The translations under genes were made by a program, and so were the position numbers. From Psammoneis japonica (Eukaryota), in the NCBI GenBank assembly GCA_008632985.1, contig QPGO01000158.1:62001-126000 (forward strand): a stretch of 64,000 bases of DNA, written 5' to 3'. This document shows positions 12,776-64,000 of this stretch, in pieces. Under the pieces are notes generated by a model. The model was not told the origin of the DNA. It saw only the letters and a list, made by a program, of their open reading frames with translations, and searched no databases. Every line of letters begins with the position of its first letter. Position 1 is the first letter of the stretch.

Positions 12776-12784
12776 ACCTTGGTA

Positions 12785-16900: not shown

Positions 16901-17044
16901 ATGGAGTGCCATGATGGGTGCTGACACATGACTGTGCACGTGCACAAAAGCTTGCTCTCTGCTTTAAACAGGACCCTTGACATTTCCTGCAATGGAAAAA
17001 GTGGCAAACAAAAGAGTCCTTGAGAGTGCTCTTTTGGTGTGTGG

Positions 17045-19100: not shown

Positions 19101-19364
19101 AACAGGAGCAACAGCGGTGGCAGCAGCAGCGGCAACAACAGCAACATTTCCTCAAAGTTGCTGGGGAATGGAAGAGTGGGGGTCAATGTTGCAGGAGATC
19201 CATGGAGCACAAAAGCCAAAGCAAAGAGGTTCAGGAGCTGTTTCTTGCTCCACCACTTTGTCCTTGGCCTTGATGTCATTGTGATGGGAAATGTGTTGAA
19301 GTCCAAGGGAGACCAGAAAAAATGTGGGTGCTCTTCTTCTGGCTCTTTTTTGGGTGCAATGTGA

Positions 19365-19500
19365 GGACAGCCACTGGAAAACCCAACTCTTTCTCCCTCC
19401 TGGTGTTGCAACTGCTGTTTCTTAAATTGACACATGGCAATTGCAGATGCAACAAGAAACACCACAAACACCATTGCCAAGGTCAACAAGCAAAAGTTGT
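19365..19500 (-). pseudogene. Degraded N-terminal membrane segment of the phoD-like paralog
   Basis: VFLVASAIA.. and DNA ggtgttgcaactgctgttt..attgac..tggcaattgcagatgcaac align with 21870-21980 (FFIASAIATSIFTNNNYNTREEKEW). Confidence 0.65.
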
Positions 19501-20218
19501 TGGAAATCCAAAAACAAAAATGCCCCCTTGTGAGCTGGCTGGTGGCAGTCCTCTGCTCCTTCTTTGCAAAAATGTTTTTGCGCAGCCCAGCATGGAACTT
19601 GAGCCAAAATGCAAATCTTGCTTGACACATGATTGTGAGGTGTCCATTGGAGATTTTGAAGTTGGGCAACACATTCATGCAGCAGCAGCACTTGCATGAA
19701 GTCAAGCCAAGTTGCTGTGGTTGTGGCGTTCTTGCCCGGGGTGCAAAAAGGTGGTGCCGAGATTTGTGATTTGACCCATGTGTGTGATCTCACACCATCA
19801 GTGGCTTTGATTAATTGGCCCACCAATGTGCTGATTGCAAGTGCCAGATCTGTGTGCCACCCCTGATTGCAGTGCAGCAAGTGTCCTGGCTGTGCTCCGC
19901 CCCAACCAACTGCCCACCACCCACCTCACCATCTTGCAACATCAAGGTGTTGAGAAACTGCAATGATGCTGCAGCTCACAATTGTGAACATGTGTTCACT
20001 TCATTTTGCAATGGCTGCTCCCAAAGCCACATCCTGAGAATCGGTCAGGTTGAGTCGTGCGGAAATGCAAAACACAACTGCTTGATTCTTCAAAAGGATG
20101 GTGTCGCCGTTTGACACGAAAGACACTTTCCACCTAATTGCCAGTACAGCACTTACGAAGGGGGGTTGGCAGCAAAAATTAAATTGAGTCACAGAAGTCT
20201 TCTTCTGATTGCTTCTAC

Positions 20219-29575: not shown

Positions 29576-30899
29576 TTAAGATGTCAAAGCGCACGCACGA
29601 CGCCCAGACGACTAACGTGTGGTCGAATGAATCGGTTCTCCTAGTCCATAATGATGATGTTATCCGACACAAAAAAAAACAACCATGGCGGCAGCAACAG
29701 CCGCTGCTCGATGTTGTTGCAAAACCTTTTCCCACAACAAATATGAATGCATAACATTCTCTATTTTTTTCTCATAAGTGTATCCACTAAAAGAGAGGTA
29801 AGAGAAAATCCAAAAATGGATAAAAACTCCCTTCTGTTGACATTGCTGCTTTTGATGATCCATCTCACAACTTGCGCGTTTCAATTTCTTTTTGTACTGG
29901 ACAGATTGACGAGCACCGAACCTCTTTCTTGGTAAAGAATAATGACTAAAACTCCTTCTGATGTTGCAAAAAAAAAAACTCGCGGGCGCCGTTGTTCCAC
30001 TTTGCCGCCGCTACAACACGCCACACTCCACACTCAGGCTTGTGAAACATTGCATTTTATGTTAAATGTGCAATTCTTTAGAACCATGCAATGCACACAA
30101 AAATGATCTTGTATAAGAAAAATAACTACAAACATTTTCATGGCAATAAAAATGCATGTAAAATGCAGTGCACAAATGTGCATTTCCCAAGTGTGTGTCC
30201 CGCGCTTTGCAATGAGCGGCGAAATGCCACGCACGAAAAGATCTTCTCTTCCACCTCTTCAATGTTCACCTTCATGGTTTGGGGGGTCGGGATCATCACT
30301 GAGTGGCTCACGACCAATGTTCTTCAAAGAATCATCATGCTTGCCGTTGCAATGCAACGATGAGTGAGCTCCGTTTGGATGGGTGGCTCCCCCAATCGCA
30401 TTTGCGGGGCTGGCAACTGCAGCCAAAAATTTTGTGTGGTGATGCATGACAAAGCTCATCTCGCGATCGCTCTTAAGTGCATTTATTGCACATCAACACA
30501 CGTGTTGTTGCCAACAGAAAATGACTGAAAACATTTTTTCAGGACTTAAAATGTGTGTCAAATGCTCACATTTACATTTGCCACGTTGACAAACACAATG
30601 TTTTGCAAGCCTGTCCATGCTGGCATCTGCAAGACCGGCATTGCTTGACGCAGTCGGCGTTTGAAGGCAGTGTGATGGTCAGCGTGGAAGTCTTTGGAGT
30701 GACCTTTCAAGGGTTGATGGTGTTGAGGAGCATGGTGGCGCCGCTGGCGCTGTTGATGCACGATTGGTGATCTGCAAGAGCAGGTGGCACTGTGGCAGCT
30801 GTGCAGTGTGGGAGTCGGCGGCGTTGGAGCAGTTGCTCGTGATTTGTTGCATTGCATTTGCACTTTTGTCCTAGAGAGCTCATCTCTGTGGCATTGTTT

Positions 30900-33800
30900 C
30901 TGACTTCAGTCATCAACAGCATGTTCTGCAGGGCACGCAAGTGCCGCTGCTGCTGCAACTGTTGCGACTGCTGGTGCAGGAATCGGCGGCCTTGGAGCAG
31001 CAAGTCGGCATGGTGGTGGGCGGCGTGGCAATGGCAGGCGGAGTGGCAGGCAGTGGTGTTGGAGTGCTGCCAGGCAGGTGGTGCAGGAGTCGGCGGCATT
31101 GCAACAGCTGGGCAGTGTGGGGGTTGGTTTGGCTGGAGCAGCTGGCTTGTGCAGGGAGTGGGTGGCATTGGAGCAGCTGTGCGGCATGGCAGTCGGCGGA
31201 GTTGGAGCAGCCAGGAGGTGCAGGAGTTGGCATGTGGGATGGTGCATTGCTGCATGGGAGTCAGCAGCATTGGAGCAGCTGGGTGCACTGGAGTGGGAAA
31301 CTGTGGGTTTATTTTGTTGTCGCCGACTTCAACCCATCATCACCAAGTTGGAAACTCAGGGTCGACACCGATGTTGTTCTTTGATCGGATCCTCTTCCAT
31401 TTTCGCTTTACAAAGTTGGATTCTACCGCTTTTAGATCATCTCCGATGTTGCACCCGCATGGCACCTCCCAGAAGGCCACCCGGTCCTCCGTTGGCACCG
31501 CACAGCATGCTGCTGTGTTGGCCGCCACCTTTCTGTCGTGTCTCGGACCTTTGCGATTCAAGCCGCAACGGAAACACCGCTGTGCTGTTCGACTGGGTGC
31601 CTTTCTTTTTCGATCATCTTGACTTGGTGGAGGCTCTGGCATTCAGATGTGTTGCCTGCTCTTTGCTGATTCCATCACAGCTGTGTTCCGGGCCGGTCTG
31701 CTGATCTGCGCTGGCGGCAAATTCACCAGTTGGCATTCTCCAGCTGCTCCAAATGGCTCGGATCTTTCAGGTGGGCTTGGAAGGGGTGGTCAAAAGGTTT
31801 GCAGTCGTGCGGTTGCGTGCATGTCTTTTCGTAGCCTGTTGGACTCACTGCTGACGACAACTGTTCTCTCTGCGCCAGAGTCGGTGCGCATCGTGCTCGT
31901 TTGACAAACAGTTTTCTCCCTGAGTTTCTGATGCTCGACCTTTTTGTGCCGGCAGTGGGCAGAAAGAATTGATGCTGTCTTCCTGAACATTTGGCGACGC
32001 TCACCAAGTGGTTTCTGCCATTTAGTGTCTACGAGATCGTCCCAACAACCGTTCATTCTGGCAAAATCGTACAACCCACGCTGATTTCGGTTGTTGCGGC
32101 TGTATTTTGCGAACAGTGGAAGCATTTCCTGAAACACTTCAGCTTTGTGTCCTGTGACTTGTGTCACAGGAATTCCATCCCGACCATCACGCTCGGCGAG
32201 GAACTCCATTGCGTCAGACATGGCGGTCTCCACTGCATTTGCCAGCGACTCAGCTGAATTCTTTGCACGCAGCAGTGCCATGCATCGATCCTCAATTGGA
32301 GTGCAAGTGCCTCCTCCGGCGAATCCAAAGTCATTTGGGTTTGCAAGATCCCCTTGGCACTGGTGCATTCCGTGCTCTTAGTTGGCAGTTTGCATGTTGT
32401 GGACAGTTTCGTGATTGTAGAACTTGTCGCACTCGGAAGAAGCAAGTCCCCTTTCTGTGGCCCGATCGTGGTTCCATCTGTGCACGAATGTCGCCAGAAG
32501 GCACACTGCCAGCAAGGGTGATGAATGACATGCAGCCAATGCTTCTTTAAGATGCTTGTGGAAACCCTCAAGTTGTGACGTCCCACGAACACAATGCAAA
32601 GTCGTCTTTCCACTCATCGGTTCGGTTCGGACGCAGTGGCAGTCGAAGCCGGGTTTGTCACTGACCCACCCTTTCTTTGTGTGTCTGACAAAGTTGAAGT
32701 GCACTTTCCAAGTTTCCTTTGAAAACAGGAGTTCACCTGATTTGGCACACTTGACATCAGCGATGAATCGAACGGCATTCTTCATGCGGGACAGAAGAGC
32801 ACTGGGCTCAGGTGTGATTCTCTCAATGTCTGCCAATGTCTTGGATGAAGGTCGACTCATCCTCCTTTTAGCCTCCTTTTTTGCTTCCTTGGGATTGTTG
32901 TGCCACCGACCATGCACACGGTTTGCCAGCTTTTCTGCCAGCTTCTCGATTTCAACGTCAAGCTTCTCTTGGTTGATCAATGGCATCAAGTCACAAAGCA
33001 GACCCGAACCTTCTTCGTAAAAGCCATGTTTCTTTTTCCAGGTTTTTTTAATGTCCTTCAGGAAATGAAAGGGATCACCTTTGACTCCGTTTCGTTTGTA
33101 GACCTCAGCTGCTGCTTCATCCCCAGTGAGCATCTCGATGTCGCCGTCCTCGCAATCATGTTGCAGCACTGCAAACTGAAGCTGATCGTCGTCATGGTCA
33201 TTTCGAATGCCATGCGATTCTGGGAACTCACTGAGACTGGCACCTCCTGGCAAATGCTCTCTTTCTTCTTCACTAAGATGGAGGCCTTCCAGTGAGTCTT
33301 CGTGCTGCTCATCACTGGGATTGATGTCTGCTCCAACGCTCACGCCTTGATCATTGTCTGTGCCATTGATTGTGACATTGTCCATGCCGTCTTCATCGTC
33401 AGTGCCGTCGATTGCGCTGCTGTAACCTGCGTGACAGCAGCCACCTTCATCTTGGTCGGCTGTTGCATCAGGACTGCTTCCGGCTTCGTCGAATGTGTCA
33501 TTGTCTGTGCCGTCTTCATCATCAGCGATGTCGATTGCATTGCTGTCACCGACGTGATCGCACGTGCCACCTTCATCTTGGTCGGCTGTTGCACCAGGAC
33601 CGCTTCCGGCTTCGTCGAATGTGTTGTTGTCTGTGCCGTCTTCATCGTCAGCGATGTCCATTGCGTTGCTGTCACTGACGCCATTGCATGCGCCACCTTC
33701 ATCTTGGTCAGCTGTTGCATTTGGACCGCTTCCATTTTTGTTGAATGTGTCATTGTCTGTGCCGTCGATTGCGTCGTCGTCTGCATCGTCTTCGGAAAAC

Positions 33801-36691
33801 TTGTGACGAGCTGCAGCACTCGTCACGTCTGCCTCGGTTGACAAAACCATTCGGGATTGCTTCCATGGTGCAATGCGATTGCCCCCGACCATGGAATCTC
33901 TGAGTGTTGCAAATGCCTTGTCTGCTTTGTTGTAGAAAGGATGGGGCACTTTCGCGCTCGGATTGACCACAGCCTTGACTGCGACCTTTGTGTCCTCGCA
34001 CGTTCTCAGCTTCCCATCAACAAGCTCCTCGGCTTTCATGTTTACATCTTGCATGTTTCCACATGCAACAATGGTGTTTGACGTGAGAGAAAAGAGACGA
34101 ACAGGAAGTCCAGGTTCCAAGTCGTCTTCACTCGGCTTTCGATGCATGGCTGCGAGCTTTTGCAACTCATGCCAAAGTGCCAGTGACAGCCAAGCATCCA
34201 GTGCGGCATAAATCACTGGCTCGAGACGCAATTGCTGGGTGCTCCATTTTGACCTGGCAAGGCTTTTGTCAACACGACATCCCAAGAATTTTTTGACCAT
34301 TGTTTCCATCTTTCTACGTTCTCCTTGCTGGAACAATCCGTGCCGGTCAGCGACGTCTCGGCAGTCAAAAGTCTTGATCAAGTCAATGCCAAACAGTTGT
34401 TCAGGACAATGACTTCACAGTCTTGTCACATCGCCTTTCACGTTCACGCCAACCAGGTGCACCTTGGAATGTGCAAGAAGTTGACGCAGAATCCCGTGTG
34501 TCTCACACCACCCACTGACGTTCGGAGCACCATGTCGGCCGTCGCTGTTTCTTGTCATGTTTGGAAATGCTGCCCACAATTTGATCACGCCAACTGACCG
34601 AGGGCACGGGTGGTCAGTTGCAATCTGCACCACAATGGGAACTTGGTTTTGCAAGTCATCATTTGTCAAGCTGTCCCACTCCACGTCGAAACCCACGCAC
34701 ACTTTGTCCTCAGCAACTTCGTCGACAGCGGTCAAGATTGGGAGGCAGAAGTCCTTCAGCTCCTTGCACATGTCCATCACCAGTGGATCAACCCCGTCGG
34801 GCAAGGAAGCCAAAGGAACTGTTGCGGCTTGATTTGCGTTGCTTTTGTCCAATCTGCCAAGGGGTGGCATTGCCCTGACAATCATTGGGCACTCATGGCA
34901 GCAATTGTCAGTGTAGAACAATTCAACTTCCTCGCAGGCGTGCACCTTGTGCCGATGTTGGACCACCTTCAAAATGTTTTCAACCTCTTCACAGTCTCCG
35001 CTCCGAACAAAGCGAATGTCCACCACCTGGTTGCATTCATTCATTGCAGTGTAGACAGAATCACATGCTCGCACGCTGCCGCCGGTGGCGCCAGTGACAA
35101 ATGCAAACTCAATGACCTTGCACGACTTGTCACCGAAAAGAACCTTTCCTGACACCATTTCAAGACATCTTTCAAAGTGTGGCAGCTTGGTGATGACACG
35201 ATTCACAAAGACACTTTGCAGATGCTGCCTCGACGGAGGACTGCGCACTCGCACCGTGTCGAATTTTGCAGTCATCGCATTTTCGAACTCGGGCTTCGGC
35301 ACGCTCTGAACAGTGCCTCGCAATTTTGGGTTAAAGTGCACAGCTTGAAACTGCTCCTTCAATTCAAAATGCTTGTTCTTTTGTTTTGCAGCAAGTTCAT
35401 TGTGAATTGCATTGAAGCTTCTTTTCGTCGAGACCGCCTCGACAATGTGGTTTGACAACTGCACTGTCACAGCCCCACGTTTCGTCATTGCTGCATTGAA
35501 AATGCCTCTCACGTTGGTTGTGAGATGAGCTAGCACCTCATCACAATGGCCAGCAAAATGGTGAGGATGGTTTTCAATGTCCCCACAATCTTCATCACCC
35601 ACTCGGAATTCGTCTGGAGCCGCATCTCGCAGTTTCCTAGGTGATTTAATGCTGCAACAGTGTTGACCCAAAAACATGCTTCCGACTGACCCATCTTCAT
35701 CAATGAATGTACGAACGAAGTTGTTGTAAAAAAGATCTCTGCAAGTGCAGGGTTGTTTGGTTTCCGTGTCGCATCGGAAGCCGTGCCATTTGCATGGCAT
35801 CTGACCAGTCGGCAGCAGGTGTGGGGCCGTTCTGTTGGGAGAAAAGAATGTCATTTGACAGAAGCACTTAACCAGCATGTCCACAAATGTTGGGGCTCTC
35901 TGAAGCTTAAAAGGTGCTGTCCATTCACATTCTTCAGATTTCCAAGGGAAATCCTTCGCCCCAGTTGAATGCCGAATGTGTTGATTTGATTGTTTGCATT
36001 TGTTTTTCATGTCCTTTCTCAGCTTGTGCATGACCTCTCCAACAATTTTCCAAAACATGCGTGGCACTTGCTCCATGTTGACACCCGGGAGGGGGTCTTC
36101 ATCAGTTGGCTCTTTTGCAGCCTGTTGCGGTGCGTCTGCAGGTGCATCTGCAGGGACGACCTCAGGGTTGTTGTCGTCACAGTCATTTTCTAGAGGAGCT
36201 CCAGCAGCAGCCCCTTGCACAACAACAGCTAAATTTCCATCGTCTGTCAATGCCTGACGCCTCCGTGGTAAAAAGAAATTTTGTGGGGCCCTTGCTTCCG
36301 CTCGGCTTGCTGCCAGCTGTCTGTTTTGCTTGAGTTCTGCAGCAAGTCGCCGGTCCCGATGCTGCCGCTCTTTTTCCTCTTTTTGCTTGTCCCTTTCAAT
36401 CTGTGCATTCGTCCTCCTGTTGTGTGTGCTTCCTCCAGCACGCCCCCGCCCCTTCTTCTTTTGCAGTTCCGACTCCCGTCTCACACGCGGATTTGCTGCG
36501 TACGGATTTGCCACCGGCGCGTGTTGCGATGCGGGTGCTTGTGTTGTTGTCAGCTGTTGCGCTTGATGCTGTTCTTCCTGACCTGCTCTTCCTTGCTGCT
36601 GCAACAAATCTGATGGCAATGCAGCTTGATCTGTGCCTTGCTGCGCCATTGGAGGCCGTGGCTCAGAAGGATCAGCTGCTTCTTCTGACAT
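30900..36691 (-). pseudogene. Degraded DDE-type transposase with an inserted DEDDy 3'-5' exonuclease domain
   Basis: Consecutive ORFs 34415-36697, 32378-34381, 31790-32368, 31340-31642. Transposase-like motifs LFGDKS, TAMNECNQV, FYTDNCC, GDPFH, RGTSQLEGFH. Exonuclease motifs GFDVEW, GVNVKGD, YAALDA. Confidence 0.75.
33350..33780 (-). repeat. 126-bp (42-aa) acidic coding tandem repeat, about 3.3 units
   Basis: ccaccttcatcttggtc at 33441, 33567 and 33693; unit DEDGTDNxTFDEAGSxPxATADQDEGG..SNAxDIAD. Confidence 0.92.
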
Positions 36692-37328
36692 CGTCAACGC
36701 TGCAAGTCAATGTTGACATTGTTTTTCCTCTCGTTTTGGCGTGTTGATTGAAGTGTGAATGAAACAAAGAGGATTCCCTCTTTCCTGTCGTCACACAATT
36801 TGCACCATGTTGGACCGTTCATTTCTGCTTGTCGTCACAGAAATGGAGTTGTGTCGTCACAGGATTCTGCACAAGTTCCAGTGCATTTCCCACACGATTT
36901 ATGAAGAGCTGCCTGCGCAGCTGGACGATTGCCGAAATTTCGCGCAAAACATGATGTCATGATTCACCCGCCCATGGTTCAGTCTGGACGGTTGAGCCAT
37001 TGACCCACGGCCGCGGCATCCCCAATCACCCACACACCATTTTGCATGATGTTCTCCCACCAGAATCTGCTAAGAAGACTGCTTGGGTGGATTGAGCATG
37101 CTTTGTCGGCCGCCCTTCTTTTGCTCTTCTCACTCTTCTCAATGGCTCAAATGAGAGACAAGGTGGTCAAGAGACACTCTCAAACAGAGTTGCTTTGGCA
37201 GCTTTCCATGCTGACAATCCAGCTGCTGAGCTGATTTGCTCTGAAAATCTGAGGCACTTTCTGAGCTGTGCAGTTGGTTCTTGCACGCTCTCCTCTCTGT
37301 GTGCATGATCCCAAAAAGTGCGCACACA

Positions 37329-37359
37329 AGAGAGAGAGAGAGAGAGAGAGAAGAGAGAG
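37329..37359. repeat. (GA)n microsatellite
   Basis: agagagagagagagagagagagaagagagag. Confidence 0.9.
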
Positions 37360-38572
37360 CTTTGCGAGAAAAGGAAGACAGGCAGGTCAAGCAGCTCATG
37401 CACCCGCAGATGTGAAGGCACTTTTTGAGCCATCCAACAAAAGTTTGTGAAGAAAGCTGGGTCAGACAAAAGGAAAGAAAGAGGGGGATCAACAGTGAGT
37501 GGCCGACATCAATGCAGCCAAGGCTCTGCGATTGAAAAGAAGAAAAGAGTCGTCGATTGACACAACGCTTCAAATGCATGAAGTCATTTGCATGCCCCAT
37601 GCATCTGTCAAAAGTGTGCAAAAAAGCTCAGTGAGAAAAGAAAGGAAAAAAAGTGGCCTTGGCATTTGCAGATGACAGGGCGCTTTTTTTGAGCACTCAA
37701 GCTGGTCTCACTCTCCACCATGCTGAGTGCGCATCTGTCACAAGTGTGTGAAGAAAGCTGGGTGAGCAACAGAAGAGGCAGATCAAGTGGTTTGTGCCAA
37801 GGTGGTTGGGGCTGCAATTGAAAAGAAAAAGAAAAAAAGAGAAAAATGTTGATTTGCTCAAACACGTCACACTCTGAATGCAAACAGTTTTGGTGAATGT
37901 TCTCCCAAGCAAGTGTTTCAAATTCAAGAAACATGGCTTTTCTGGTGATGGTGCTCTGATGTGTGAGGATTGCTGCAACAAAAATGACAGCCTTGAGTGA
38001 GCAGCTTGCCCCAAATGCTGTGCCTCCCTCTGTGAAAATGATTCTCACTGTGCAATCCCAGCCACATGCGCAAAGCCCATGTGAGGGATTCATTGGTCAT
38101 CTTCCTTGTGCCAAAAAAGACAATTGTGGTGGAGAGACATGGGGATGATCCAACTGTGGTGAAGATGATTTCATTGAAGAGCAATGCGCAGCAATTTCTA
38201 AGAATGTGAAGTTGAATGCCAACAGCCACTGTGCAATGAATGTGTCTGTTGTCTTTATCTTCTCCATCGTCTCTATTGCTGGCAACAATTTACGCATGTG
38301 TGGAGGCTGTTAACATGAATGCAAGGATTGGGACACGCATGCTGGCCACTGGTGATTCAGACATCAGTGGTGCGGTGGCTTGCCGTCAAAATGCTCGTGA
38401 TGAAGTTGTGTAATGTGTGTTAATGTATCTTTTTCTAATTTCGATCAACACTGTACTGTTTCACAATCTTCCTCGCACATCATTCCTTCCTTCGCAGGTC
38501 GAAAAACAACCACCGCGAGTAATATATTTATGATATATCGACTGCATTAAAGCATTTGGAGATTCCATACAT

Positions 38573-51173: not shown

Positions 51174-51958
51174 TGAAGAATTTACCATGTGATCTTATCG
51201 GAATTAGTGTTTAGAACTGTATATTTGGCGATTCGGAACGGGAAGACTCCATCCGAGATCTAGTCACAATCTTAGAAATAGTAGCACGATGTTACAACGA
51301 TTTTCTATAACTTTACTCTCTAGCAAGCGACTACAGGGTAATTTATTCACTTTATCAGAGCCATCGCCGTATGTAACGACAGTGGTAATGATTGCTACGC
51401 TTGCGAACGACTCGCAATACGACCATTCGTTCCAACTTGTCAGAGATGACATGAAAACATCGACGAACGTGAGACGACGTTCGTGCTTGACGAGTATGTA
51501 ACTCCCAGGGCTAGTTCGGCCGTAATACTTATGGATAACAAAAGTATCGACTGTCCTGATGTGTCTTATGAGCGTAAATACGCGGACACAGAGCGCAAAA
51601 TTGGATCTGGGACGCCATTTCCATACCGAAGTTATCTCGGAGGCAACCGCGTGGCGATTTGAAATCGCCGAGTGAGCATATATACATATCCAAGTTGAAT
51701 ATGTAGACGCGATATAATTAATAAATTATATATTTAACCTCACTAATTAATAAATTATATATTTAACCTCACTATTGGTCAATGTAAAACAGGGAGCGAG
51801 CACGTCGCCGATGATCGGCACATGCATTATTCGATCACGTAGATTGTAACAGTAGCCGTTATATCTGAATCTCGACACAGATATTAATCCACGTGGATTA
51901 AATATAAACCGCTATCTGTAGACACGTTGATCGTAGTTATAACGATTACTTTTATCCA
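51174..51958 (+). repeat. 5' LTR of the copia element (3' end approximate), TA-rich and unmutated
   Basis: Begins TGAAGAATTT; first 177 bp match 58400-58576; contains a 29-bp AT-rich tandem duplication at 51715-51772. Confidence 0.8.
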
Positions 51959-52063
51959 ACGGTGGAAAAGCGATACGAAGTTCGCGCACCTCACTCACTT
52001 TTCGTGCACAACCACACAAAAGTTTGCGAGACACGTAAAACTCACCGTTTGTAACCATCAACC

Positions 52064-55000
52064 ATGGCAGCAGTCGCAGCAGCGATGCGTGCTGCCTGCG
52101 CCCGACTGGGGTTTACCGCGCAGGCAGCCGCGGCTTTAACCGATGAGCAGGGAATCGACTCAGTCGATGAACTGCGTCATCTCGATGACCACGAGGTCGA
52201 GACCTCACGCAAGGTCATTCGTCGCCCAGGAGGGGCTGCGGCAGGAAATCCGCCGGCAGGTGGGAACGTCCAACCCAACCTGGGGACGTCAGTCCCATTG
52301 CGAGCCGAGACGAACCTCAAGCTCACCGCACACACGGCTCGTCACTGCGAGCGCATGTCGCGGACGTTGCGAGCTGTTGACATCAACCTTGCACGAGTGC
52401 GAGGCTGCCGCCACTTCCGCACTGTGGAGGAGACCTGCAAACCGCCCGAAACGCCACCAACGATCATCGAAAAGGACTGGCCGAAGACGATCGAGTCAAT
52501 TCAGGAGCATCTGCGGGCATGCCGAGGCGAAACGAAGATGCCGCTGTCGCACGTCATCCGTGAGAACCAGGAAGCAACCGCCGAGGCCGACGATCGGCCA
52601 CCAACTACAACGACCCGATCGAGGAGATGATCACGAGGGCTCCCCATCTCACTGCTGGGAACAACCCTCAACCCACCGAGACGTTCACGGCCGACAACAT
52701 CAAAGTGTGGGAGATTGTCGCCGGCATCACTCGGGAACATGCGAGTTGGGCTTATGTCAAGCCAGCCCAGAGGCGCCAGGATGGCAGGACGGCCCACCTG
52801 AACCTCTACAACCATTTCTTGGGCCCCAACAATGTAGACAACATGGCGAACGCTGCTGAAAAGAAGCTCGCCAGTCTGTCCTGCCATGGGGAAAAGCGCA
52901 ACTGGAATTTCGAGCGCTGCGTGCGTGTTCATGTCAAACAACACGCGATTCTGGACGGCTCAAACGAGTGTGGTTACGCCGGGATCGACGCACGATCCAA
53001 GGTCCGCCATCTCCTTGCAAGTGTCAAGGACTCGTCGCTTGACTCAGTCAAGATGCAAATTGTGTCTAGCGCAACGTTGCACAATGACTTTGATGCTTGT
53101 GTTGTCCTGTTCAAGGACTTTATCAAGCAGTCCAAGCCGGACAACGACCGAAACGTCTTCGTGTTGCGGCTCTCAAGGCTGGGAAGCGCAAACGAGAAAC
53201 CGTCATTCATGCCGATGACATGGAGGACAAGTGCCACCCTCCCAAGGAGCACAGCAAGCTTTCTCCTCAGGCCAGGAAGAAGCTCAAGTCGCTGCGCGAC
53301 ACACGTGGTGACACGAAGAGCGGCAAGGCCACGGCGGCCGGCAATGCCAAGCAGATCAGAGCTTTGACCAAGATGGTCGTGGCGATCTCAGCTCAGATGG
53401 ACAATTCATCCGATGAAGGCAGCAGCGAATCTGAGACTGAAGAGCCAATGAAGCCTCCGGCTGCCAAGCAGGAACGGAACCGAAACAACAAGGCGTTGAT
53501 TCGTGAGGCTGCTCGCAAGCATGTCCCCAAGGCTGGATGCTGCAGGAAGTGACAGCCAGTGGTGGCCGTCATGCGGCTCAGTCCGTTGCAGACCTCATGC
53601 CGACCCAGACGAAGGTTAAAGGACCGTCGCGAGAAGAGTCTCGCACGGACATTGACAGTCATGCAGACATGAGCGTGCCAGGCAAGCACGCTTTAATTTT
53701 ACTTGACCATGACAGGCCAGCAGACACAGAAGGGTGCGACCCGACTTTGGGTGCCAGCAAGCGCCTGCGTACAGTCAGTGGAGCTGTCACCTGTGCAGAT
53801 CCTCAGACGGGCCACCCACACGTCTTGGTTGTCCACCAAGCAGTCCACAAACCACACCTTGAGCACAACTTGCTGTGTCCAATGCAGTTGTGGCTGAATG
53901 ACGTGGAACTTTCATTAAAACCGAAGTTTCTGCTGACAAAGCCCAACGACAAGGAACATGCGATTGTCGCCAAGGATGCCACGGCACTTCATTGGCCATG
54001 CCTTTAGACCTGGAGGGAGTCTCGAGCTGCTTCCCCTCCAGTGTCCCGACCTCAGCTCAACATGAGGATGCGGCCCAAGATGGGAGCGTGCATGAACTCA
54101 CGCATGAGTCCCCGGAATGGGATCCCGCCTCCTCCAATTTCCACGCCAGGGAAGATGCCATGACCGATGCTCTTGGCAGAGTGCATGAGACCGGGGACGA
54201 CACGCGTCCTCACGCACACATCATGAGCACAAAGCTCTCACGCACTGCAGCTCAAGAGACCTCAGATGCCCTGGGGAATCAGCCGTTGCATGATGTTTCC
54301 GATGCATGCGATGATCATTTGCTGCTGGCATCCATGAAACTGTCTTCGCTCAAGACAACGAAGCGCGGCTTCAAGGTTGACGCTGAACGTTTGGCCGAGA
54401 ACTGGTCCGTCAGCCTCAAGGATGCTCAGAACACTCTCAAGGTTACGACACAGCGTGGAGCCAGGACAGTTCTGCATCCTGTGCCATCACGACGTTTCCG
54501 CGCCAATGACCGACAACTGCGACACAGGCGCATCTCAAAGGAGATGCACTCCGACACCTTGTTCTCCTCTGTCAAGTCTAGATGAGGGAATTTGTGCGCG
54601 CAAGTGTTCGCAATGTCCAATGGGTGGGCACGCGCTTGTGCAACACACAGCCACTGACAAGAGCCAATGTGTCACGGCGACGTGTTGCAGCCTTTAAATG
54701 TCACAAAGGGCATGACAAAATAACCTTTTGTCTGCATGCATGCTGCATTGTGAATTCACAGCGGAGTGGCACATCGCAACCATTGGGCAGGAGGCCAGGG
54801 GTTCGAAACCCTGAGTGGGAGTTGTCTGCAGCAACGTTGATCACTGTCGAACGCGCAAAACTCTGTGCAGTTCTGCACGTTCCTTCGCACGTACCCACAC
54901 TGTTCCGCCAAAACCGTGCAGTGTCAGTGCACGTTAGTAAAGAGCCGCATGGACGCGTGATGCATGGGGAGGAGTGCAACACACAGCTGCCAATGAGAGC

Positions 55001-58000
55001 CAATGTGTCACGGCGACGTGTTGCAGCCTTTAAATGTCACAAAGGGCGTGACAAAATAACCTTTTGTCTGCATGCATGCTGCACTTGTCCATTGAAGTCA
55101 AAACGTCTGGCGCACGAGGCGTTGTCGTTGCTCTTCACGCAAGAAGGCGTGCCCCATGCTGTGCTGGTAGACGGGGCGAGAGAAGAGACAATGGGGCAGT
55201 TTAGCAAGAAAGCCAGGGAGGCCGATTGCCACATTGGACAAACTGAGCCATGTGCCCCTTGGTCTGACACCGCAGAGGGCGCAATTCGTGAACTCAAAGC
55301 GAGGCGTTGGGCACAAGATGGTTAAGTCACAGGCCCCAAAATGCTTGTGGGATGATTGCCTGGAACTGGAAGGCCTTGTTGGGTCTAACACGCTCGAAGC
55401 ATCTGTGAGCTTGACGGTGAAGTCCTGGAAACTGCAGTGTCTGGTCAGACGGCTGACATCTCGCACATGTGTGAACTCGGCTGGTGCAACTGGATCATGT
55501 TTCGAGACACGGCAGTCTCATTTCCCGAGGACAAGGAAGTCCTGGGACGATGTCCAGGCCCGAGCAGGGATGCAGGCCCTGCTGTGACGGTCAAGACACT
55601 CAAGGAGAACGGACAGGTCGTCCATCGCTCATCTCATGGGGCACTGACGCCCGAGGAACAGGAGCACAAGACGCACCTTGCATTGCGTGAGAAGTTCGAC
55701 AGGTCAGTGGAGGTCAAGCCAGGCCCGGGTGTGACCGTCGGGGACTTTGATGACCCTGACGCAATTGCTCCCACCTTCGAACCGTGCGAGGATGACGAGG
55801 AACAGGATGTTCCGGCCAGTGCCTCCGATGAGGATGACACCCCAGACGAAGCCTACGATCAACATGTCAACGCAGAAGCACTGCCACCTCACGGGGACAT
55901 GGAGCAGACTGGGACAGTGAAGCGACGCAAGCTCAATCCGGACGGCACACCTGCCGGACGGGCTGGCCCAAACCCGACACTTGACACTCGTGTGCATGAG
56001 GTCGAGTTTCCTGATGGATAGGAAGCGGAATTCGCGGCGAATGTCATCGCTGAGAATGTGTTCGCACAGTGCGACAATGAAGGCAACCAGCACTTGTTGC
56101 CAGATGCAATCATTGATCACAAGACTGACGGGCATGCAGTCAAGAAGGAGGATGCCTTCATCCAAGACAGTGGAGGACGTCGATCCATGCGCAAGACTGC
56201 CAAAGGCTGGCATCTTTGTGTGCAATGGAAAGACGGATCCACATCTTGGGAACGACCATCCGACTTGAAGGAATCCAACCCAGCAGAGACAGCAGAGCAT
56301 GCTGGGGCTAGATCCACAGAGGACGAACCAGCCTTTGCCTGGTGGGCCCCCTTTACCTTCAAGAAACATCAGCAGATTATGGCCGCTGTGAACAAGCAAC
56401 ATCACAAGTGCACTCACAAGTGCGGGGTGCGCATTCCCAAGACCCATGAAGAGGCAGTCGAGATCGACAAGGCTGACGGCAACCGCTTGTGGCAGGACGC
56501 CACAGACAAGGAGATCGATGTCGTTTCGAAGGCCTTTGAGATTATCGACGACGACGAGGAACTCGTGGGTTGCCAGCATGTTCGCTGCCACTTGGTCTTC
56601 GATGTCAAACTACAAGACTTCAAGCGGAAGGCTCGTTGTGTTGCAGGGGGGCATGCCACTGAACCTCCAGCGACTCTGACGTGTGCAAGCATCATCTCCC
56701 ATGAAAGTGCAAGGATTGCCTTCGCTCTAGCGGCTCTAAATGACTCAGAGGTTAAGGCTGCGGACATTGAGAATGCCTGCATCACCGCACCTGACAGCGA
56801 GAAGATCACTGCAACTCCAGGACCTGAGTTTGGACCCAATGCTGGGAAGCGTGCCACAGTTGAGCGTGCATTGCATGGATTGAAGAGTGCAGGTGCATCC
56901 TTCAGGAACCACTTGGCATCTTGCATGCGCCATCTTGGATGGGAACCATGCCTGGCTGATCCGGATGTGTGTGTGAAGGCACAGGTCCGACCGGATGATG
57001 GGTTCCGTCACTGTGCCCATGCACTGTTGCATGTAGACGACGTGCTTGTGGCACACCACGACGCTACGTTGGCACTCAAGGAATTGGACCGGCACTTCAA
57101 GATGAAACCCGGATCCATCGGTGACCCTGAGATGCGCCTCGGGGCGAAAATCCGTGAAGTGCAAATGCCGAATGGTGTCTGCGCATGGAGCATGAGCTCT
57201 AGCAAGTGCATCCAACAGGCCATTGAGAATGTTGAGGGGCATCTAGATGAGACTGCTCCCGGATGGATGTTGCCACGCAAGGCAACTTCTCCGTTTCTGT
57301 GCAACTGTCGACCGGAACTCGACATCACGCCAAAGCTTGATGCAGAGTGGGCCCGATTTACCAGTTGCAGGTGGGATCCTGCGCTGGATGGTGGAACTCG
57401 GACGAGTCGACCTCACAGTGGAGGTGTCCGAGCTCGCCTCATTCCTCGCCATGCCTGGAGAAGGTCATCTCGACGCAGTCCTGCATGTGTGTGGACACCT
57501 CAAGAATGGACATGATGCCACGCCAGCGTTTGATCCGACGTGCCCGGATGTTGACATGTCTGACTTTAAGGAATGTGATTGGCAGGCATTTACAGGGACA
57601 TTGAGGAGGCAATTCCGCCAAATGCACCAGAAGCTCTGGGCAAGGACATTGATCTACACCCATTTGTGGAATCAGATCATGCGAATGACAAAGTGACGAG
57701 ACGCTCTCGCACTGGTTGTTTTGTCCATTGAATGTGGCACCAGTCACCTGGTTCTCCAAGCGCCAGAGTGCCATCGAGACTTCAGTCTTTGGTGCTGAGT
57801 TTGTGGCTGTGAAGCAGGGCATGGAAGCTTTGCGAGGCCTGAGGTGTAAACTCAGGATGATGGGAGTCCCGCTCAGCGGACCATCACACATTTGTGGGGA
57901 CAACATGTCAGTTGTCCACAACACCCAAAGCCCAGAGTCGACTTTGAAGAAGAAGTCTAACTCTGTGTGCCACCATGCCGTGGGGAGTCGGTGGCTGTGG

Positions 58001-58135
58001 GTGAGTCCCTTGCAGGACACATTAGATCGGAATGCAATCCGGCTGATCTTGCAACCAAGATCATGCACGGTGGTGTCAAACAAGATGGCCTCGTTGGCAT
58101 GATGCTACACGACACATTTGATGACAAAGGATGAA
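52064..58135 (+). pseudogene. copia gag-pol pseudogene
   Basis: ORFs 52064-52630, 52627-53367, 53537-54007, 53992-54585, 55437-56021, 56058-57515, 57716-58102; frameshifts and systematic Tyr->Cys/His. Confidence 0.93.
54639..55083 (+). mobile_element. TRIM (445 bp) nested in the copia integrase
   Basis: 109-bp TG..CA LTRs at 54639-54747 and 54975-55083, PPT ggggaggag, 4-bp TSD CTTG; removing it restores GWARACPLKSK. Confidence 0.92.
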
Positions 58136-58399: not shown

Positions 58400-58576
58400 T
58401 GAAGAATTTGCCATGTGATCTTATCAGAATTAGTGTTTGGAACTGCACATTTGGCGATTCGGAACGGGAAGACTCCATCCGAGATCTAGTCACAATCTTA
58501 GAAATGGCAGCACGATGTTGCAACGATTTTCTGTGACTTTGCTCTCTGGCAAGCGACTGCAGGGTAATTTGTTCAC
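58400..58576 (+). repeat. Truncated, hypermutated 3' LTR
   Basis: Ungapped 177-bp match to 51174-51350 with 14 substitutions. Confidence 0.95.
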
Positions 58577-59714
58577 ATGCCGGTAGGGCAACATGTCAGC
58601 AGCGCAGAGTGAGCTCACAAGAACATGGCTGTGATGCCTCACTGACAAACCAAGAAGGTTGCTTTGGAGGGAACATGTTGCTCAAAATGGAAATCTGACC
58701 AACCGTGATTTGGTCTCACAACAAAATGTGGCAGTCTTCTCAAACTCCAAAAGCCCGGCTGTGCAGGGACTCTTGTGTTCTTCCTCCTCCTTCAGCTCCC
58801 AGAGAACGAGCCCCTTCTCTCAAGTGTGTGCAACTGGGACCAGCTTGTCAGCCACACCAGTGGTGGCAGGTTTGACAAGCTTCTTGGTGGCCAAGCTTTG
58901 CTGTCATCTAACAGAAATTTCCTCCTCTTTCCTTTGCTCTCTGGTGGCAACGGACACAGCCCACTGGCCGCTTGAGGCACACAATTTGCAAATGTGGAAA
59001 GAATCTGCCTCAATGAGGGAACAGGCATTTTTGCACCAGTCACAGCTGGTGCTTCTATTTCCTTGATTTCTGTGGCTGGGGGGGGATGACCCCTGCATGG
59101 CTGCAGGTGAGCCTGTCCCAACAATGCCTTTGTCCCAACAAAGCCTGGGCATCTGCAAGAAGACTGGAGTGTGATGACAATGATGACAGTGGCTGTCCTT
59201 GCTGCCCTTTTTAGGACAAGAAAGAGGAGCACTGCCACCAAGTGCAACAACATGAGGACTTTGGTTGTCTGACCACTTGTGGCTGCAGCAGAGTTTTGTC
59301 CTTGCATCCATGGCAAGAGCCAACAGCGCCTTTTCAGATCCTCAGCTGATGGGACACCCAGCAGGACAAATTTTAGAAAATGGCAGCAGCTTCAACACCA
59401 CAGCCAGCAATGATGGTGCATCAAGGTTCCTGTGTGTGTGATTTGAGCACATTTTTCTTTTCAAAACACAGGCTTGTCTCAAGATGGAAAAATTGAGCTG
59501 CCCCAGCACCAACAAAACAAAAAGGTGTTTTTTCTGGGACACGTGTGAAGCTCAGATGTGCAAAGAGAGTCCTTTGTCAAGCTGGACAGGACTCAAAACA
59601 AAAAAATCTCATTTTGTTTGATTTGAACATTTGGAAAAGTTTGGCAGAAATTTGAACTTGAGCAAACAAAGCTGAGATGTTTTGCACAGTGTTGACACAC
59701 TGTGACGTGCTGCT

Positions 59715-60360
59715 TGGGATGTGAAGTGCATGTTCAAAAGCTGAAGCTGCAAACCATTTTGCAAAAGAGACTTTTCTGTTGGCTCACACTTTGCCACCAG
59801 GTCTCTCTGTTGGCTGCCCTGACTTTGCTTGCCATCACAAGAGCTGCAGCCAAACAAACCACACAAACTGTGCTCCACCCTTTGAGACTGTTCCTTGGGA
59901 CATGGAAAGTGAGCTCAGAAGCTGAGAGTGCAAACACTTTGGCAGAAGTGACTTTTTCTGCTGGCTCACACTTTGCCACCAGGTTTCTCTGTTGGCTGCC
60001 CTGATTTTGCTCTCCTGCCACAACTGCAGTCAAACAAACCACCCAAACTGTGCTCAACCTTTTGGGGCTGTTTTCTAAGACATGGACAGTGAGCTCAGAA
60101 GCTGAGAGTGCAAACACTTTGGCAGAAGTGACTTTTTCTGCTGGCTCACGCTTTGCTGCCACCAGGTTTCTGTGCACACCCAGAGGCTGCTCTGCTGCCA
60201 AAACTGCAGCCAAGAAACACACCCAAACTGCAATCAAGCCTTTGAGGCTGCTCCTTGGGATGTGAAGTGTGTGCTCAGAAGCTGAAGCTGCAAGCCATTT
60301 TGCAGAAGAGACTTTTTCTGTTGGCTCACACTTTGCCACCAGGTCTCTCTGTTGGCTGCT
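59715..60360. repeat. 180-bp tandem repeat, about 3.5 units
   Basis: gctga(ag/ga).tgcaa at 59740, 59921, 60101 and 60281. Confidence 0.9.
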
Positions 60361-61699
60361 GCCGCTTCATGGGCAAGTCCCAGAAAATTGGTCATTGACA
60401 CAATGCAGCTCTTTTGTCCATCACCCTTTGTGCCAAGTGGAAGCACACCCGGTGCAGAAAGCTGGAGCTGATGCACTCAAATGACAAATGCAAAAGCATG
60501 AAACAAAAAGAGTGCCAACACACCACAGGGAAGTTTTGGTGCTTGCTGACAAACAAGGGCAAAAGGCAAAACACAAAACTGGCTGTCATGGAGGTCCTGC
60601 CATTGTTGTCAGCATGAGTGCAGCACCACTTTACATGCACAAGATGGTTTGCGGACACAGACATGTACAATCTGTGGCAGATTGTGCACTGCCATGCCAC
60701 ATCACATTTTTCTTGATGCAACAGTTCAGATGAGCTCTGCCGCTGGTTGATGCACTGGAATGGCCCAATTTGCTTGAACTGCAAAAGTCATTGGCTGCCC
60801 CAAAATTTGCATGAGAGGCCAATGGACAAACACAATGATGTTGTTGTGGCAGCGGCATTGTCAGCACTTTTCCACTGCCATGCAACAGCACAATGTTGTT
60901 TTTGATGGAACAACACAGATGAGCACCAATGGCTGGTGCATCAGAATGGCCCATTTTGCTCAAACTGCAGGAGCTTGCTGTTTTGTTCAAACTTGTGTGA
61001 GACCAATGCACCATCACAAGCACTTTGCTGCAGCCTTGTTGCAGTGTGCTTTTCTTTACAACACAGATGAGTGCCAGTGGCTGGCACAAGAGAGCAACCA
61101 AATTTGTTCAAACCAGGAGTCACCAGCTTGTCCAAATTTGAAGGAGAGGCCAGTGGTGCCAACACAATGACAACATGGTGGTGGCATGTCAGCACTTTCC
61201 TGCAGCTGCACAACAGCATGTCTTTCATGATGTGTCAAGAGGGCAGACAAGCATTGATGGCTGATGTGAAGGAACAGTCTGTTTTGCTCAAACTGCAGGA
61301 GTTCATCACATTCTTGTTCAAGCTTGCATGAGGCAGCCATCAGCATGTTTTTATGATGATGTGGCTGAGTTGTCAGCACTTTCTTGCAGCCTTGCAAAAG
61401 TGTGTTTTGACAGCATAAATGAGTGCAGGTGAATCTGTCATGTTCTGGCACAAACAGAAATTTGGGGATGCACTGGGCATGACAATGTTGCTGTCATTGG
61501 CAGACTGCCAAGGTGCACTTGAAATGTTGGTTGGTGAGCGCGAGTTTGGCTGTTGCACCACCCCCACATGAGTGCTTCAGAACTGCCATGAGTTGATCTT
61601 CAGATGGTCCTGATGCATGATTTGGTCATTTTGGAAGACTGGTGGAGACTGTGCTTTGAATCCATGGGGCACCCTGCCTGGACAACAAGCAACTTCCAT

Positions 61700-62735
61700 G
61701 TTGGCAATTTTTGCTTTTTAAGTTGCCACAAAAGAAGTCTCAGCATGCAGCCCAAACACTCTGATGGCACATGCACACTTGTGGGACATTGTCACTTGCA
61801 GAGACAATGCTGCAGTGATCATGAAATGGCGGGAACTTCAAATGAAGGCCTCTGCTGTTGTGCCACAGTGGAGTGCAGCATCTTCACTCCTTGTGTCTCT
61901 TTGTGATGTCTGCGTGGTGCCACACAGAATTGTGCATGGTGCATGCATGCATGGAGCCCCTCACATTGGGTTGCACTTGCACACCAAAAATGAGCTCTCC
62001 AAGCTGTCCATGGCTGTGACATTGTTTCCTGGAAAAGGTCAGGTGAGTCATTGTTGCATGAGTCCATTGGCAGGACCAACATCTTGCATGTTCCTCATGG
62101 GCAGACAAGCATGCACAGCGTTTGGCTGCTGCTGTCTGCAAGTCAAATGTGGCAGCACCCTCTGGCATTGAGGAGATCTGATGATGACACCCACCACACA
62201 AAGCTTTCAAGCTCATGCAGCATGTCTGGACATGAGGAATTGGGTGGGGCAATCTTTTGTCCCCATTGTTGAGCTCACGGAAATTGCCAACAAACCATGC
62301 CACAAAATCTTGCTTTGGCAAGGAAAATGATGGAGCTGCGCACTGCAGACACAGTTGGTTGTGTGCTCAGCAATGCCAACTTCATGAATGTGCTCCACTT
62401 TCTTTCTCAGCATTGCTTCACATCCCCTTGGGGCTTTGCAAAGATGTCTGCAACATGGCACAGCATGATCCTCTTTGAGCTTGGTGTGCTGACAGGAACC
62501 CCCTTTCCACTCGCCTGACATGCCATCAAGCAAGGACTCACACTTGCTCAACAAACTGAGCAGCTTCATGTTCTGGTCACTGCCAAGACCTGTTGCTCCC
62601 TGCATTGTGTCCTCAAGGCATGCTGGCACATGCTCAGCATCTGAGATCTTCACAATTCTCAGTTCTGTTGCTTTCTGAAAACAGTGCCTCTGGATCTTGA
62701 AAACAAATGAAGGTTTCTGCAGTGGCTTCTGCACA
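61700..62735 (-). pseudogene. Ty3/gypsy reverse transcriptase remnant
   Basis: LLSKCESLLDGMSGEWKG, KLKEDHAVPC, PKQD..FVGNFRELN..KRLPHPIP, LPMDSCNNDSPDLFQE resemble gypsy LLxKYxxLFDGTLG, DFRELN, PYPIP, LPMG..SPDxFQ. Confidence 0.75.
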
Positions 62736-64000
62736 CTTCAATGGCATCTTGTCATTGACCTTTGGCCACTCCAGCATGTCTCATCCAACAACCATGTGTC
62801 AGGTTTGCATGATGATCAACTGTGTGTGTGGTTGACTTTGCGCACAAGCTCTGCTGTTGCAGACAACTCTGGCAACTGAAATTGGTGATGCAAGCACTGT
62901 GTGCCATCTTGAAGCTGCCTGCCAATGTGGTTTTGGCTGTTGTGTGGCTCAAAAGCCATTTGCTTGCAGCACTTGGCATCTGGCAGCACATGCTCCTGAT
63001 GCTGCCATCTGGCACTGCTTCAATCATTTCAGGCTTGCCTTCACCATGCTTGGCATCCATGGCTGCAAACAACATTGCTGCCAGTCAAATGTCTGTGCTT
63101 GACATGTGTGCAGGGTTGGCCTGTGCAACATGAGTGTGATGGCACAACAAGTGATGCACTGAACCTGTCTGACTTGCACTGGCCTGCTTGTTCTCAGGTG
63201 CTGTTGTCCTCCAAATCCTTGTTGGAGTCACCCAGGGAGAGGGCACAAAAGTAATTTGGCTCCTCTTTGCAAGCCTTGCACACCACCCTGCAGTTCTCAA
63301 GCACATCTTCAACTCTTGCCTTGGCAGGAGCTTTGTCAAGCTCCTCATGAGTGGTGTGCAGTTTCTGTGTGGCTGGTTTCTGATTGCTGTTCATGTGGGA
63401 CATCTTGAGACATTCCACCCCATGCCTCAAAATGAGATGTTCTTCCACATTGTGCACCTGGCACTGTCACCACCATGCAACACTCAGCATTTGATGCCTT
63501 TCTCTCCTGACTGGCGACCCCAGCACTTTTGAGGAATGTCCATTCTTCCATGGCCCTGGTGCTTCATGGGGACATTGTGGCACGACCTTCCTGCTTGCCT
63601 TTGGCAGAAACAAATTTTGCAATGGCATGAGTCCACGGGTCAAAATCCTGTGAGATTGTCTGCCTTTGCCATGTGTTTGGAGCGCTTCATTCAAATGAGT
63701 CAACCAACTCATCTTCTGGCAATGATGCAGGTGCAAAACCATTTTCAATCACAGACAGAAACAGCAAGATGTGGCCATTCAGCTCACTGACCTTTGTGGC
63801 ACAGAGTCACCTGTCTTCACACCATTTGGCTTGAGTGCAAAACATCACAGAGACAACATGCTTTTGCAGCAGCACTGCCTTGTGCAGGAAGATGCTTTCA
63901 GTCACCTTTGAGATGCACACCTTGAACAAAACCACATTGGCCCCCCCCTGATGCCCCTTTGACACACCATCATCAAATGCAGCAAAGACACTGCCTTGTT

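Follow-up and report, generated by a model that had tools for sequence, protein, structure and literature searches.

Evidence for post-integration hypermutation of TA to TG and CA in a dead copia-type retrotransposon of the diatom Psammoneis japonica

A 64,000-nt stretch of the genome of the diatom Psammoneis japonica (GenBank assembly GCA_008632985.1, contig QPGO01000158.1, positions 62,001 to 126,000; hereafter the window, with all coordinates counted from its first letter) carries at 51174–58576 one complete but dead Ty1/copia-type long terminal repeat (LTR) retrotransposon, similar by description to the CoDi elements of diatoms, in which the gag-pol region and the 3′ LTR have been depleted of the dinucleotide TA. 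The change ran from TA to TG or CA, depended on the TA context, struck both strands alike, followed integration, fills discrete blocks of the window and ran ahead of the loss of CpG. Taking these observations together, we consider it highly probable that the element was hypermutated where it had integrated; deamination of adenine, kinship with a process in the alga Bigelowiella natans and a role in genome defence would complete the account. The parts of the element are as follows, with dinucleotide frequencies given as observed/expected ratios (O/E).

51174..51350, plus strand: 5′ LTR, 177 nt, TG...CA, with 18 TA, TA O/E 1.04 and CG O/E 1.31; not hypermutated
51351..52064, plus strand: leader from the LTR to the start of gag, 714 nt, with 63 TA, TA O/E 1.06 and CG O/E 1.77; not hypermutated
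52065..58135, plus strand: broken gag-pol frame, TA O/E 0.17, CG O/E 0.80, GC 56%, 50 TA remaining
56058..58102, plus strand: reverse transcriptase (RT) and RNase H part with the Tyr>His/Cys footprint
56595..57152, plus strand: RT core (Pfam RVT_2), E 2.1e-10, residues 192–377 of frame 56022–57515
58400..58576, plus strand: 3′ LTR, hypermutated, 13 of its 18 TA now being TG (10) or CA (3), with one CG>CA in addition

An earlier, sequence-only reading had proposed for the RT and RNase H part that conserved Tyr has become His or Cys, the RT active site included, as TAY codons turned into CAY and TGY. The motifs it quoted are all present: ALLHVDD, RALHGLK, DIENACITAP, TCASII, SKCIQQA, HKCGVRIP, WERPSDLKES and ALNDSEV lie in the stop-to-stop frame 56022–57515 (plus strand), and GLRCKLRMMG, SHICGDN and NSVCHHAV in the frame 57689–58102 (plus strand). 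The YVDD active-site box reads HVDD, with the His codon CAT at 57030, and ALYGLK reads ALHGLK, with its altered codon at 56874. We joined the five frame pieces of 55686–58122, placing X at the breaks, and aligned them with 60 homologues, namely the proteins of at least 640 aa among the 120 matches listed of 816. Columns were treated as conserved when at least 60% of homologues agreed; there were 502 such columns, and 117 of them differ in the window.

All 27 conserved Tyr columns have changed: 13 to His, 10 to Cys, 2 to Phe, 1 to Trp and 1 to Arg. Stricter conservation gave the same result, with 20 of 20 Tyr columns changed at ≥80% and 15 of 15 at ≥90%. When each of the 60 homologues was treated likewise, 88 of 1148 conserved-Tyr cells were changed, Phe accounting for 49 of these, His for 14 and Cys for 6. 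Composition tells the same story: the RT and RNase H pieces retain one Tyr in 806 codons (0.12%). In 70 related intact frames (those with an open frame of at least 700 aa among 80 related metagenome loci), Tyr averages 3.8% and is never below 2.3%. The window pieces are also rich in His (4.96%; at most 3.9% in the 70 relatives) and Cys (3.23%; at most 2.49%). This pattern of Tyr loss is far beyond chance. At the individual motifs, the homologues carry the following residues.

HVDD, His: Tyr in 57 of 59
ALHGLK, His: Tyr in 59 of 60
NAC, Cys: Tyr in 49 of 60
TCAS, Cys: Tyr in 58 of 60
SKC, Cys: Tyr in 56 of 58
LRCKL, Cys: Tyr in 48 of 50
SHIC, two columns: Tyr in 33 of 49 and Tyr in 40 of 49
CHHAV, first His: Tyr in 47 of 51 (the preceding Cys is an ordinary conserved Cys, 44 of 49)
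WERP, Pro: Leu in 59 of 60
NDSEV, Ser: Leu in 59 of 60
HKCGVRIP, Cys: Phe in 52 of 60, Tyr in 7 of 60

The Tyr ancestry assigned to these motifs in the sequence-only reading is therefore borne out by the homologue columns, save for the Cys of HKCGVRIP, where most homologues have Phe; elsewhere the 60 homologues keep Tyr in place of the His or Cys of the window. The proposed replacement of Leu by Pro in WERPSDLKES and by Ser in ALNDSEV agrees with the alignment too. So does the forecast that Y>C/H, L>P/S, V>A and I>T/M would be found on tabulation: we counted Y>H 13, Y>C 10, L>P 3, L>S 1, V>A 3, I>T 4 and I>M 1. First-position A>G changes after a T ending the preceding codon added I>V, M>V, T>A and N>D.

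At the DNA level, each differing column was scored by the single-letter change leading from the codon of the consensus residue to the window codon, together with its context. The 117 columns yielded 23 TA>CA, 22 TA>TG and 2 ambiguous TA changes (45–47 in TA), while A>G or T>C outside TA occurred in 5 columns, with AA>AG seen just twice against 22–24 TA>TG. Changes of A:T to G:C were thus confined to TpA, both in the coding part (45–47 vs 5) and in the LTRs (13 of 14 differences). A further 15 columns represent CpG decay (14 CG>CA and 1 CG>TG) and 8 hold other or ambiguous transitions. Counts per 1000 codons of TA in the three codon phases were 2.5/8.7/13.6, compared with means of 38/41/55 and minima of 23/16/24 in the 70 relatives; TA has been cut in all three phases, so the rule operates on the dinucleotide rather than the codon. 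Top-strand and bottom-strand events were balanced in the coding part (24 and 23) and when the LTR was included (34:26, p 0.37). Overall, TA O/E is 0.18 at 56058–58102 but about 0.5–0.7 where the window bears genes and 0.47–0.92 (median 0.69) in the 80 related metagenome loci, so the copia family is not TA-poor by nature, and CA/TG O/E in gag-pol reaches 1.4–1.6.

The process seems to prefer TA followed by a pyrimidine. Of 60 edited A, 45 had a pyrimidine as 3′ neighbour, while the partner strand gave 32 of 60 (p 0.02); with Tyr codons set aside, since these dictate a pyrimidine, the counts were 25 of 37 and 14 of 37 (p 0.019). Conversely, among the TA left in the element a pyrimidine stands on the 3′ side in 33 of 114 strand readings, compared with 620 of 1116 for normal window DNA (chi-square p 8e-8). 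In a separate observation, CpG decay at amino-acid-changing sites of 55686–58122 was lopsided, with Arg CGN codons giving 6–7 His/Gln but 1 Cys; the imbalance of 14 CG>CA to 1 CG>TG may reflect strand bias or an effect of codon structure.

The LTRs date the change. They form a direct repeat with TG...CA ends and 92% identity over 177 nt each. Of the 14 positions that distinguish them, 13 have TA in the 5′ copy and TG (10) or CA (3) in the 3′ copy; the last is CG>CA. Across the 177 nt compared there is no difference outside a TA or CG step, which suggests a rate contrast between TA and other letters of, very roughly, hundred-fold order. A third LTR copy, from another locus, matches the 5′ LTR at both TA places that it covers. 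Because the two LTRs are identical at insertion and now differ at 13 TA, the hypermutation came after integration.

Other copies were drawn from one DNA sequencing run (X1, 0.47 of words) and two runs of the same sample. Contigs of X1 differ from the window in the element family at 567 places when counted by kind, 489 of them transitions. Among the 40 places listed of these 567, 28 set TA or CG against TG or CA: at 15 the window has TG/CA where CG stands elsewhere, at 7 it has CA/TG where TA stands elsewhere (including 56874, in the Tyr codon of ALYGLK, where the C of the window is T in another copy from the same organism's run), at 4 it has CG against TG/CA and at 2 TA against TG; the other 12 are of other kinds. 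The direction claimed in the sequence-only reading, with TA lost and TG/CA gained, is therefore supported by four independent comparisons—with the homologues, with another copy, with the 5′ LTR and with a host gene described below.

These results bear on whether the editing could have preceded integration, through an ADAR-like enzyme acting on RNA or a deaminase acting on single-stranded cDNA. There are points of likeness: deaminase-type transitions gather in retroelements under ADAR and APOBEC3, in animals, retroelement RNA is known to be hyperedited from A to G and cDNA to be edited by APOBEC, and ADAR favours U before the edited A according to a recent preprint (Mettrop et al., 2026; bioRxiv 10.64898/2026.01.13.699255). 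Such enzymes, however, work before integration and on one strand, of RNA or single-stranded cDNA, whereas both strands were hit here, after integration and in DNA other than retroelements as well. One template makes both LTRs, yet these differ at 13 TA; editing of one strand predicts Tyr>Cys or Tyr>His alone, yet 10 and 13 were found; and the same loss occurs in non-retroelement DNA of the window. The LTR result and the strand symmetry exclude editing of RNA or single-stranded cDNA as far as we can judge, and we give this explanation very little chance. ADARs are, moreover, animal enzymes.

Besides the hypermutation, the frame of the element is broken in six places.

54635..55088: insert splitting pol, ~450 bp of a very high-copy small repeat, bounded on either side by ~115-nt direct repeats
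56019..56021, plus strand: in-frame TAG stop
57360..57984, plus strand: four one-letter frameshifts in the RT C-terminal/RNase H region, at ~57360–57372, ~57591, 57727/8 and 57983/4, seen as tblastn frame changes

Copies in run X1 have one additional letter at 57376, 57590, 57727 and 57980, the places of the frameshifts. The insert has a depth of 30,000–80,000 in X1, compared with ~600 for the element and ~62 for the flanks; two contigs join 54634 directly to 55084, and the alignment of relatives is interrupted at 54633/55089. The sequence-only reading held that the element was killed by missense at Tyr rather than by nonsense codons as in fungal repeat-induced point mutation (RIP). The contrast with RIP is correct, in that loss of TA cannot make TAA or TAG, but the order of events in time cannot be told beside the frameshifts, the TAG and the insert.

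A base-calling artefact at modified bases, or a functional lineage with native His and Cys, is scarcely credible against this background. Systematic base-calling errors at methylated motifs do occur on some platforms, but they would not deplete one LTR to 5 of 18 TA while sparing all 18 in the other, nor would they bring frameshifts, an insert and CpG decay; X1 contigs also match 58605–59000, in the TA-free DNA adjoining the element, with one other letter and the left flank with one, although X1 may be the source sample of the window. Against native His and Cys stand the 60 homologues that keep Tyr, the other copy with T at 56874 and the six breaks in the frame.

Further features of the anatomy are as follows. 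The RVT_2 match lies above the curated Pfam cut-off, as expected of a copia-type RT. At E ≤ 0.001, 816 proteins match frame 56022–57515 with up to 57% identity; those with names come from the diatom Fragilaria crotonensis. Polyproteins of 1416–1504 aa from three intact relatives (L056, L069 and L079) align collinearly to 53564–54633 and 55089–58125, and in the window frames upstream Pfam returned no gag, protease or integrase family even at E ≤ 5, as was also the case in two intact relatives. A contig of run X2 diverges from the window directly past 51349, marking the end of the 5′ LTR, and alignment of the LTRs beyond 177 nt under a transition-tolerant score reached 39.5 compared with 38 for shuffles, with nothing above the shuffles, so the LTRs are simply short. 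In the leader, TATCAGAGC at 51354–51362 resembles a copia-type primer binding site, and the purine-rich GAGGGGAC lies immediately upstream of the 3′ LTR. CATG occurs on both flanks of the element and, at only 4 nt, makes a weak target-site duplication. The family is multi-copy, with an X1 depth of ~600 over the element and 600–900 over the leader compared with ~62 for the single-copy flanks.

Loss of TA extends beyond the element. A 500-nt profile of TA and CG O/E along the window revealed four TA-poor blocks, totalling ~27 of the 64 kb.

12780..20200, block A: TA O/E 0–0.09, CG O/E 0–0.35; contains a 1-kb direct repeat pair and a PhoD-like fragment
28000..38200, block B: TA O/E mostly 0.04–0.2, CG O/E 0.5–1.08; contains a ~1440-aa frame with an exonuclease domain
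52,065 to 58.58 kb, block C: the copia element from its gag-pol start, TA O/E 0.05–0.25, CG O/E 0.54–1.17
58577..64000, block D: older TA-free and CpG-free DNA adjoining the element, TA O/E 0–0.10, CG O/E 0–0.14

Between the blocks, gene-bearing DNA with long, nearly intron-free genes has a TA O/E of about 0.4–0.8 and a CG O/E of ~1; the neighbouring genes have been spared. The blocks are sharply edged; at the left border of block C there is no gradient, TA falling from ~10 to 0–2 per 100 nt at ~52,040–52,110. Most CpG persists in block B and the copia element despite their loss of TA; TA loss was therefore the faster process, and no by-product of complete CpG decay. The depletion was confined to delimited foreign or mobile DNA, comprising the copia element, the exonuclease-domain frame, satellites and a host-gene fragment, whose coordinates are as follows.

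12477–12775 and 13744–13959, minus strand: partial copy of a PhoD-like gene; the outer piece keeps Tyr, and the piece inside block A has CHH for YYY
32378–36706, minus strand: ~1440-aa frame of block B, with one stop at 34412–34414 and a 3′–5′ exonuclease domain (PF01612)
33440–33817: tandem array of 126-bp units in block B, inside the exonuclease-domain frame
59708–60366: tandem array of 180-bp units in block D

The intact PhoD-like gene (20222–22027, minus strand, 602 aa) has its named relatives among pennate diatoms such as Amphora, Seminavis and Cylindrotheca, with a best identity of 53%, in keeping with a pennate-type host, and reads MYYYGLSNGD where the partial copy in block A reads LCHHGLSNGN. 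The frame in block B has a sole homologue cluster, P0241, in a set of 5.8 billion proteins, at 47% identity; 14 of the 21 aligned Tyr of P0241 are His (7) or Cys (7) in the window and 2 are kept, and the reverse exchange occurs 0 times. This frame may belong to an undescribed mobile element. With the Tyr>His/Cys footprint present in this frame and in the PhoD-like fragment, the process is not specific to copia. Stop codons follow suit: both strands of block D hold 17 TAA+TAG against 267 TGA. Long frames (≥100 aa) are in slight excess in the TA-poor blocks, at 3.3–3.8 against 2.0–2.8 per kb, the excess being slight because TGA is enriched. The 1-kb repeat at 12779–13762/18095–19102 was considered as the missing middle of the partial PhoD-like copy and rejected, with scores of 39 (null 37) and 29 (null 32.5) and no similarity.

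The arrangement of the blocks also bears on targeting. Instead of following a chromatin domain, the process might find its targets by repeat homology, as RIP does in fungi, with some leakage into the flanks. The PhoD-like duplication speaks against this, for the intact gene is untouched, the partial copy is mutated solely inside block A, and the edges of block A do not coincide with those of the duplication. The leader likewise is repeated (depth 600–900) and was spared. Homology targeting would, on the other side, suit a multi-copy family (depth ~600 vs ~62) whose mutated part begins with long coding homology, and blocks that contain repeats; the sparing of the 5′ LTR would follow if 177 nt of LTR alone were too short for recognition. 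On balance we regard homology targeting as improbable.

In the mechanism that we favour, regional hypermutation after integration, a copia element integrated and its gag-pol region and 3′ LTR were then hypermutated, the A of 5′-TA-3′ on either strand being turned into G to give TG or CA. About four fifths of TA were removed in this way, and with them every conserved Tyr codon, that of the YVDD box included, with ordinary CpG>TpG/CpA decay proceeding more slowly alongside. The process is regional, filling four sharply bounded blocks of mobile-looking DNA, satellites and a captured host-gene fragment. We infer adenine deamination in silenced domains: within silenced chromatin, an enzyme would convert adenine to hypoxanthine, which pairs with C, while the DNA is duplex or transiently opened. 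A TadA/ADAT2-derived protein is a candidate enzyme, and the preference for TA followed by a pyrimidine would be a weak hint in this direction. In the substrates of tRNA adenosine deaminases, a U precedes the target A, and bacterial TadA reads UAC, which would fit both the TA context and the pyrimidine preference.

The same outcome could arise through other chemistry, either from oxidised T made by a TET/JBP-type dioxygenase or from error-prone repair synthesis at TA by an enzyme like polymerase eta. The 5-hydroxymethyluracil and 5-formyluracil made by TET/JBP-type dioxygenases mispair with G, and the hotspot of polymerase eta is WA. Either route would be strand-symmetric on duplex DNA, as seen here, and regional if tied to chromatin, and the blocks do show CpG decay, as expected of methylated DNA with frequent T:G repair. 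A WA hotspot, however, predicts AA>AG, of which 2 were seen against 22–24 TA>TG, and block B lost TA and kept most CpG, so that heavy CpG deamination is not needed. We therefore judge such chemistry to be unlikely, if worth bearing in mind.

Several observations weigh against regional hypermutation by adenine deamination, or limit its reach. Although part of the same element, the 5′ LTR and the leader of 714 nt have escaped the change (TA O/E 1.04 and 1.06), and a simple domain model does not predict this spared 5′ end. Spread of a domain from block D, a rule on homology length as in RIP, or recombination with a younger copy would each fit. The leader belongs to a repeated family (depth 600–900) and is presumably transcribed, so simple transcription-coupled or repeat-only models fit poorly. 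In the coding part, 45 of the 117 differing columns (24 transversions and 21 multi-letter changes) are divergence that the TA process leaves unexplained; they are ordinary divergence, as the relatives are merely ~50–57% identical. The effect of the 3′ neighbour is modest, and Tyr codons contribute part of it by construction. Run X1 may be the source sample of the window and is not an independent confirmation of its letters. Our evidence, moreover, consists of fixed differences, measured for TA loss within one 64-kb window, and the process may be extinct in the lineage.

Relatives of the element give little sign of the process elsewhere. None of the 80 related metagenome loci is TA-poor (minimum TA O/E 0.47), and only one of the 120 homologues listed, the metagenome protein P0025, hints at TA loss, with 6 of 19 Tyr replaced by His or Cys; judged from its protein sequence, it may represent a related element under the same process in another organism. 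The relatives were taken as best matches, and one of the search patterns called for Tyr or Phe, which biases the sets towards intact copies, and they do not establish that the process is general in diatoms. At one of the metagenome loci (L072), a related copia element has a CG O/E of 0.01 and a TA O/E of 0.47; such CpG decay without TA loss indicates that the two processes are separable.

The sole directly matching report that we found in the literature concerns B. natans (Mettrop et al., 2026; bioRxiv 10.64898/2026.01.13.699255). According to that preprint, two integrated viral regions in mutation-accumulation lines mutate ~1000 times faster than the rest, almost solely by A>G and T>C and always at TpA. 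The virus insert that is hypermutated there exists in one copy, reverse-transcriptase and DDE domains are over-represented among TpA-poor genes, and an ADAT2 homologue was proposed on similar grounds. The likeness extends to TpA alone being hit, to TpG or CpA arising according to strand, to sharply delimited regions, to foreign or mobile targets and to raised GC, and by analogy the process in P. japonica may be the same, acting as genome defence. The systems differ in host, B. natans being a chlorarachniophyte and thus a rhizarian whereas the host here is a diatom and thus a stramenopile. They differ further in that fixed differences stand here against mutations caught in culture lines there; erasure is deeper here, with a TA O/E of 0.00–0.2 against 0.45 in their virus region; and the window provides an LTR retrotransposon letter by letter with its own LTR as control, CpG decay in older blocks and a weak TA-pyrimidine preference. 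What is new relative to B. natans is thus the host lineage, the degree of erasure, the LTR-controlled retrotransposon, the order relative to CpG decay and the protein footprint.

Like RIP, the process makes transitions at one dinucleotide, works in blocks, ruins transposons and spares nearby genes. Its direction is the opposite: in Neurospora and other fungi, RIP changes C to T at CpA, making TpA, AT-rich DNA and stops, whereas here the DNA becomes GC-richer and TAA and TAG are destroyed. RIP also mutates both duplicates, whereas here the 5′ LTR keeps 18 TA while the 3′ LTR has lost 13, and the PhoD-like gene is unmutated. Neither the RIP signature of C>T at CpA with excess TpA and stops nor mutation of both copies was found in the window. 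Decay of methylated CpG by deamination of 5-methylcytosine is present as well, with 15 coding changes and a CG O/E down to 0–0.14 in blocks A and D, but it cannot yield TA>TG/CA. With the CoDi elements (Maumus et al., 2009; PMC2806351) the element has in common a copia-type RT, short LTRs and a diatom host; a word search of that paper met no mention of dinucleotides, hypermutation or deamination. In the literature searched we found no report of TpA loss in diatoms, nor did word searches within the diatom transposon papers PMC2806351 and 10.1101/2025.10.24.684338 turn one up.

The finding implies that TpA hypermutation is not peculiar to one alga, that it acts on transposons besides integrated viruses, and that it can be dated against the LTRs of an element and against CpG decay. 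Given the ecological dominance of diatoms and the genetic tractability of several of them, the enzyme responsible for A>G at TpA and the way in which it is aimed become more testable. There are practical consequences too: the blocks are GC-enriched and poor in TAA and TAG, and their proteins lack Tyr, which can hide them from similarity searches and repeat annotation and may let gene callers read straight through. More tentatively, diatoms might possess a defence based on adenine editing directed to chromatin domains, a kind of ‘reverse RIP’ with a TadA/ADAT2-derived enzyme, possibly ancient and shared with Bigelowiella across the stramenopiles, alveolates and Rhizaria (SAR). If true, this would be a defence that kills proteins through Tyr>His/Cys without stop codons and erases TpA faster than methylated CpG decays.

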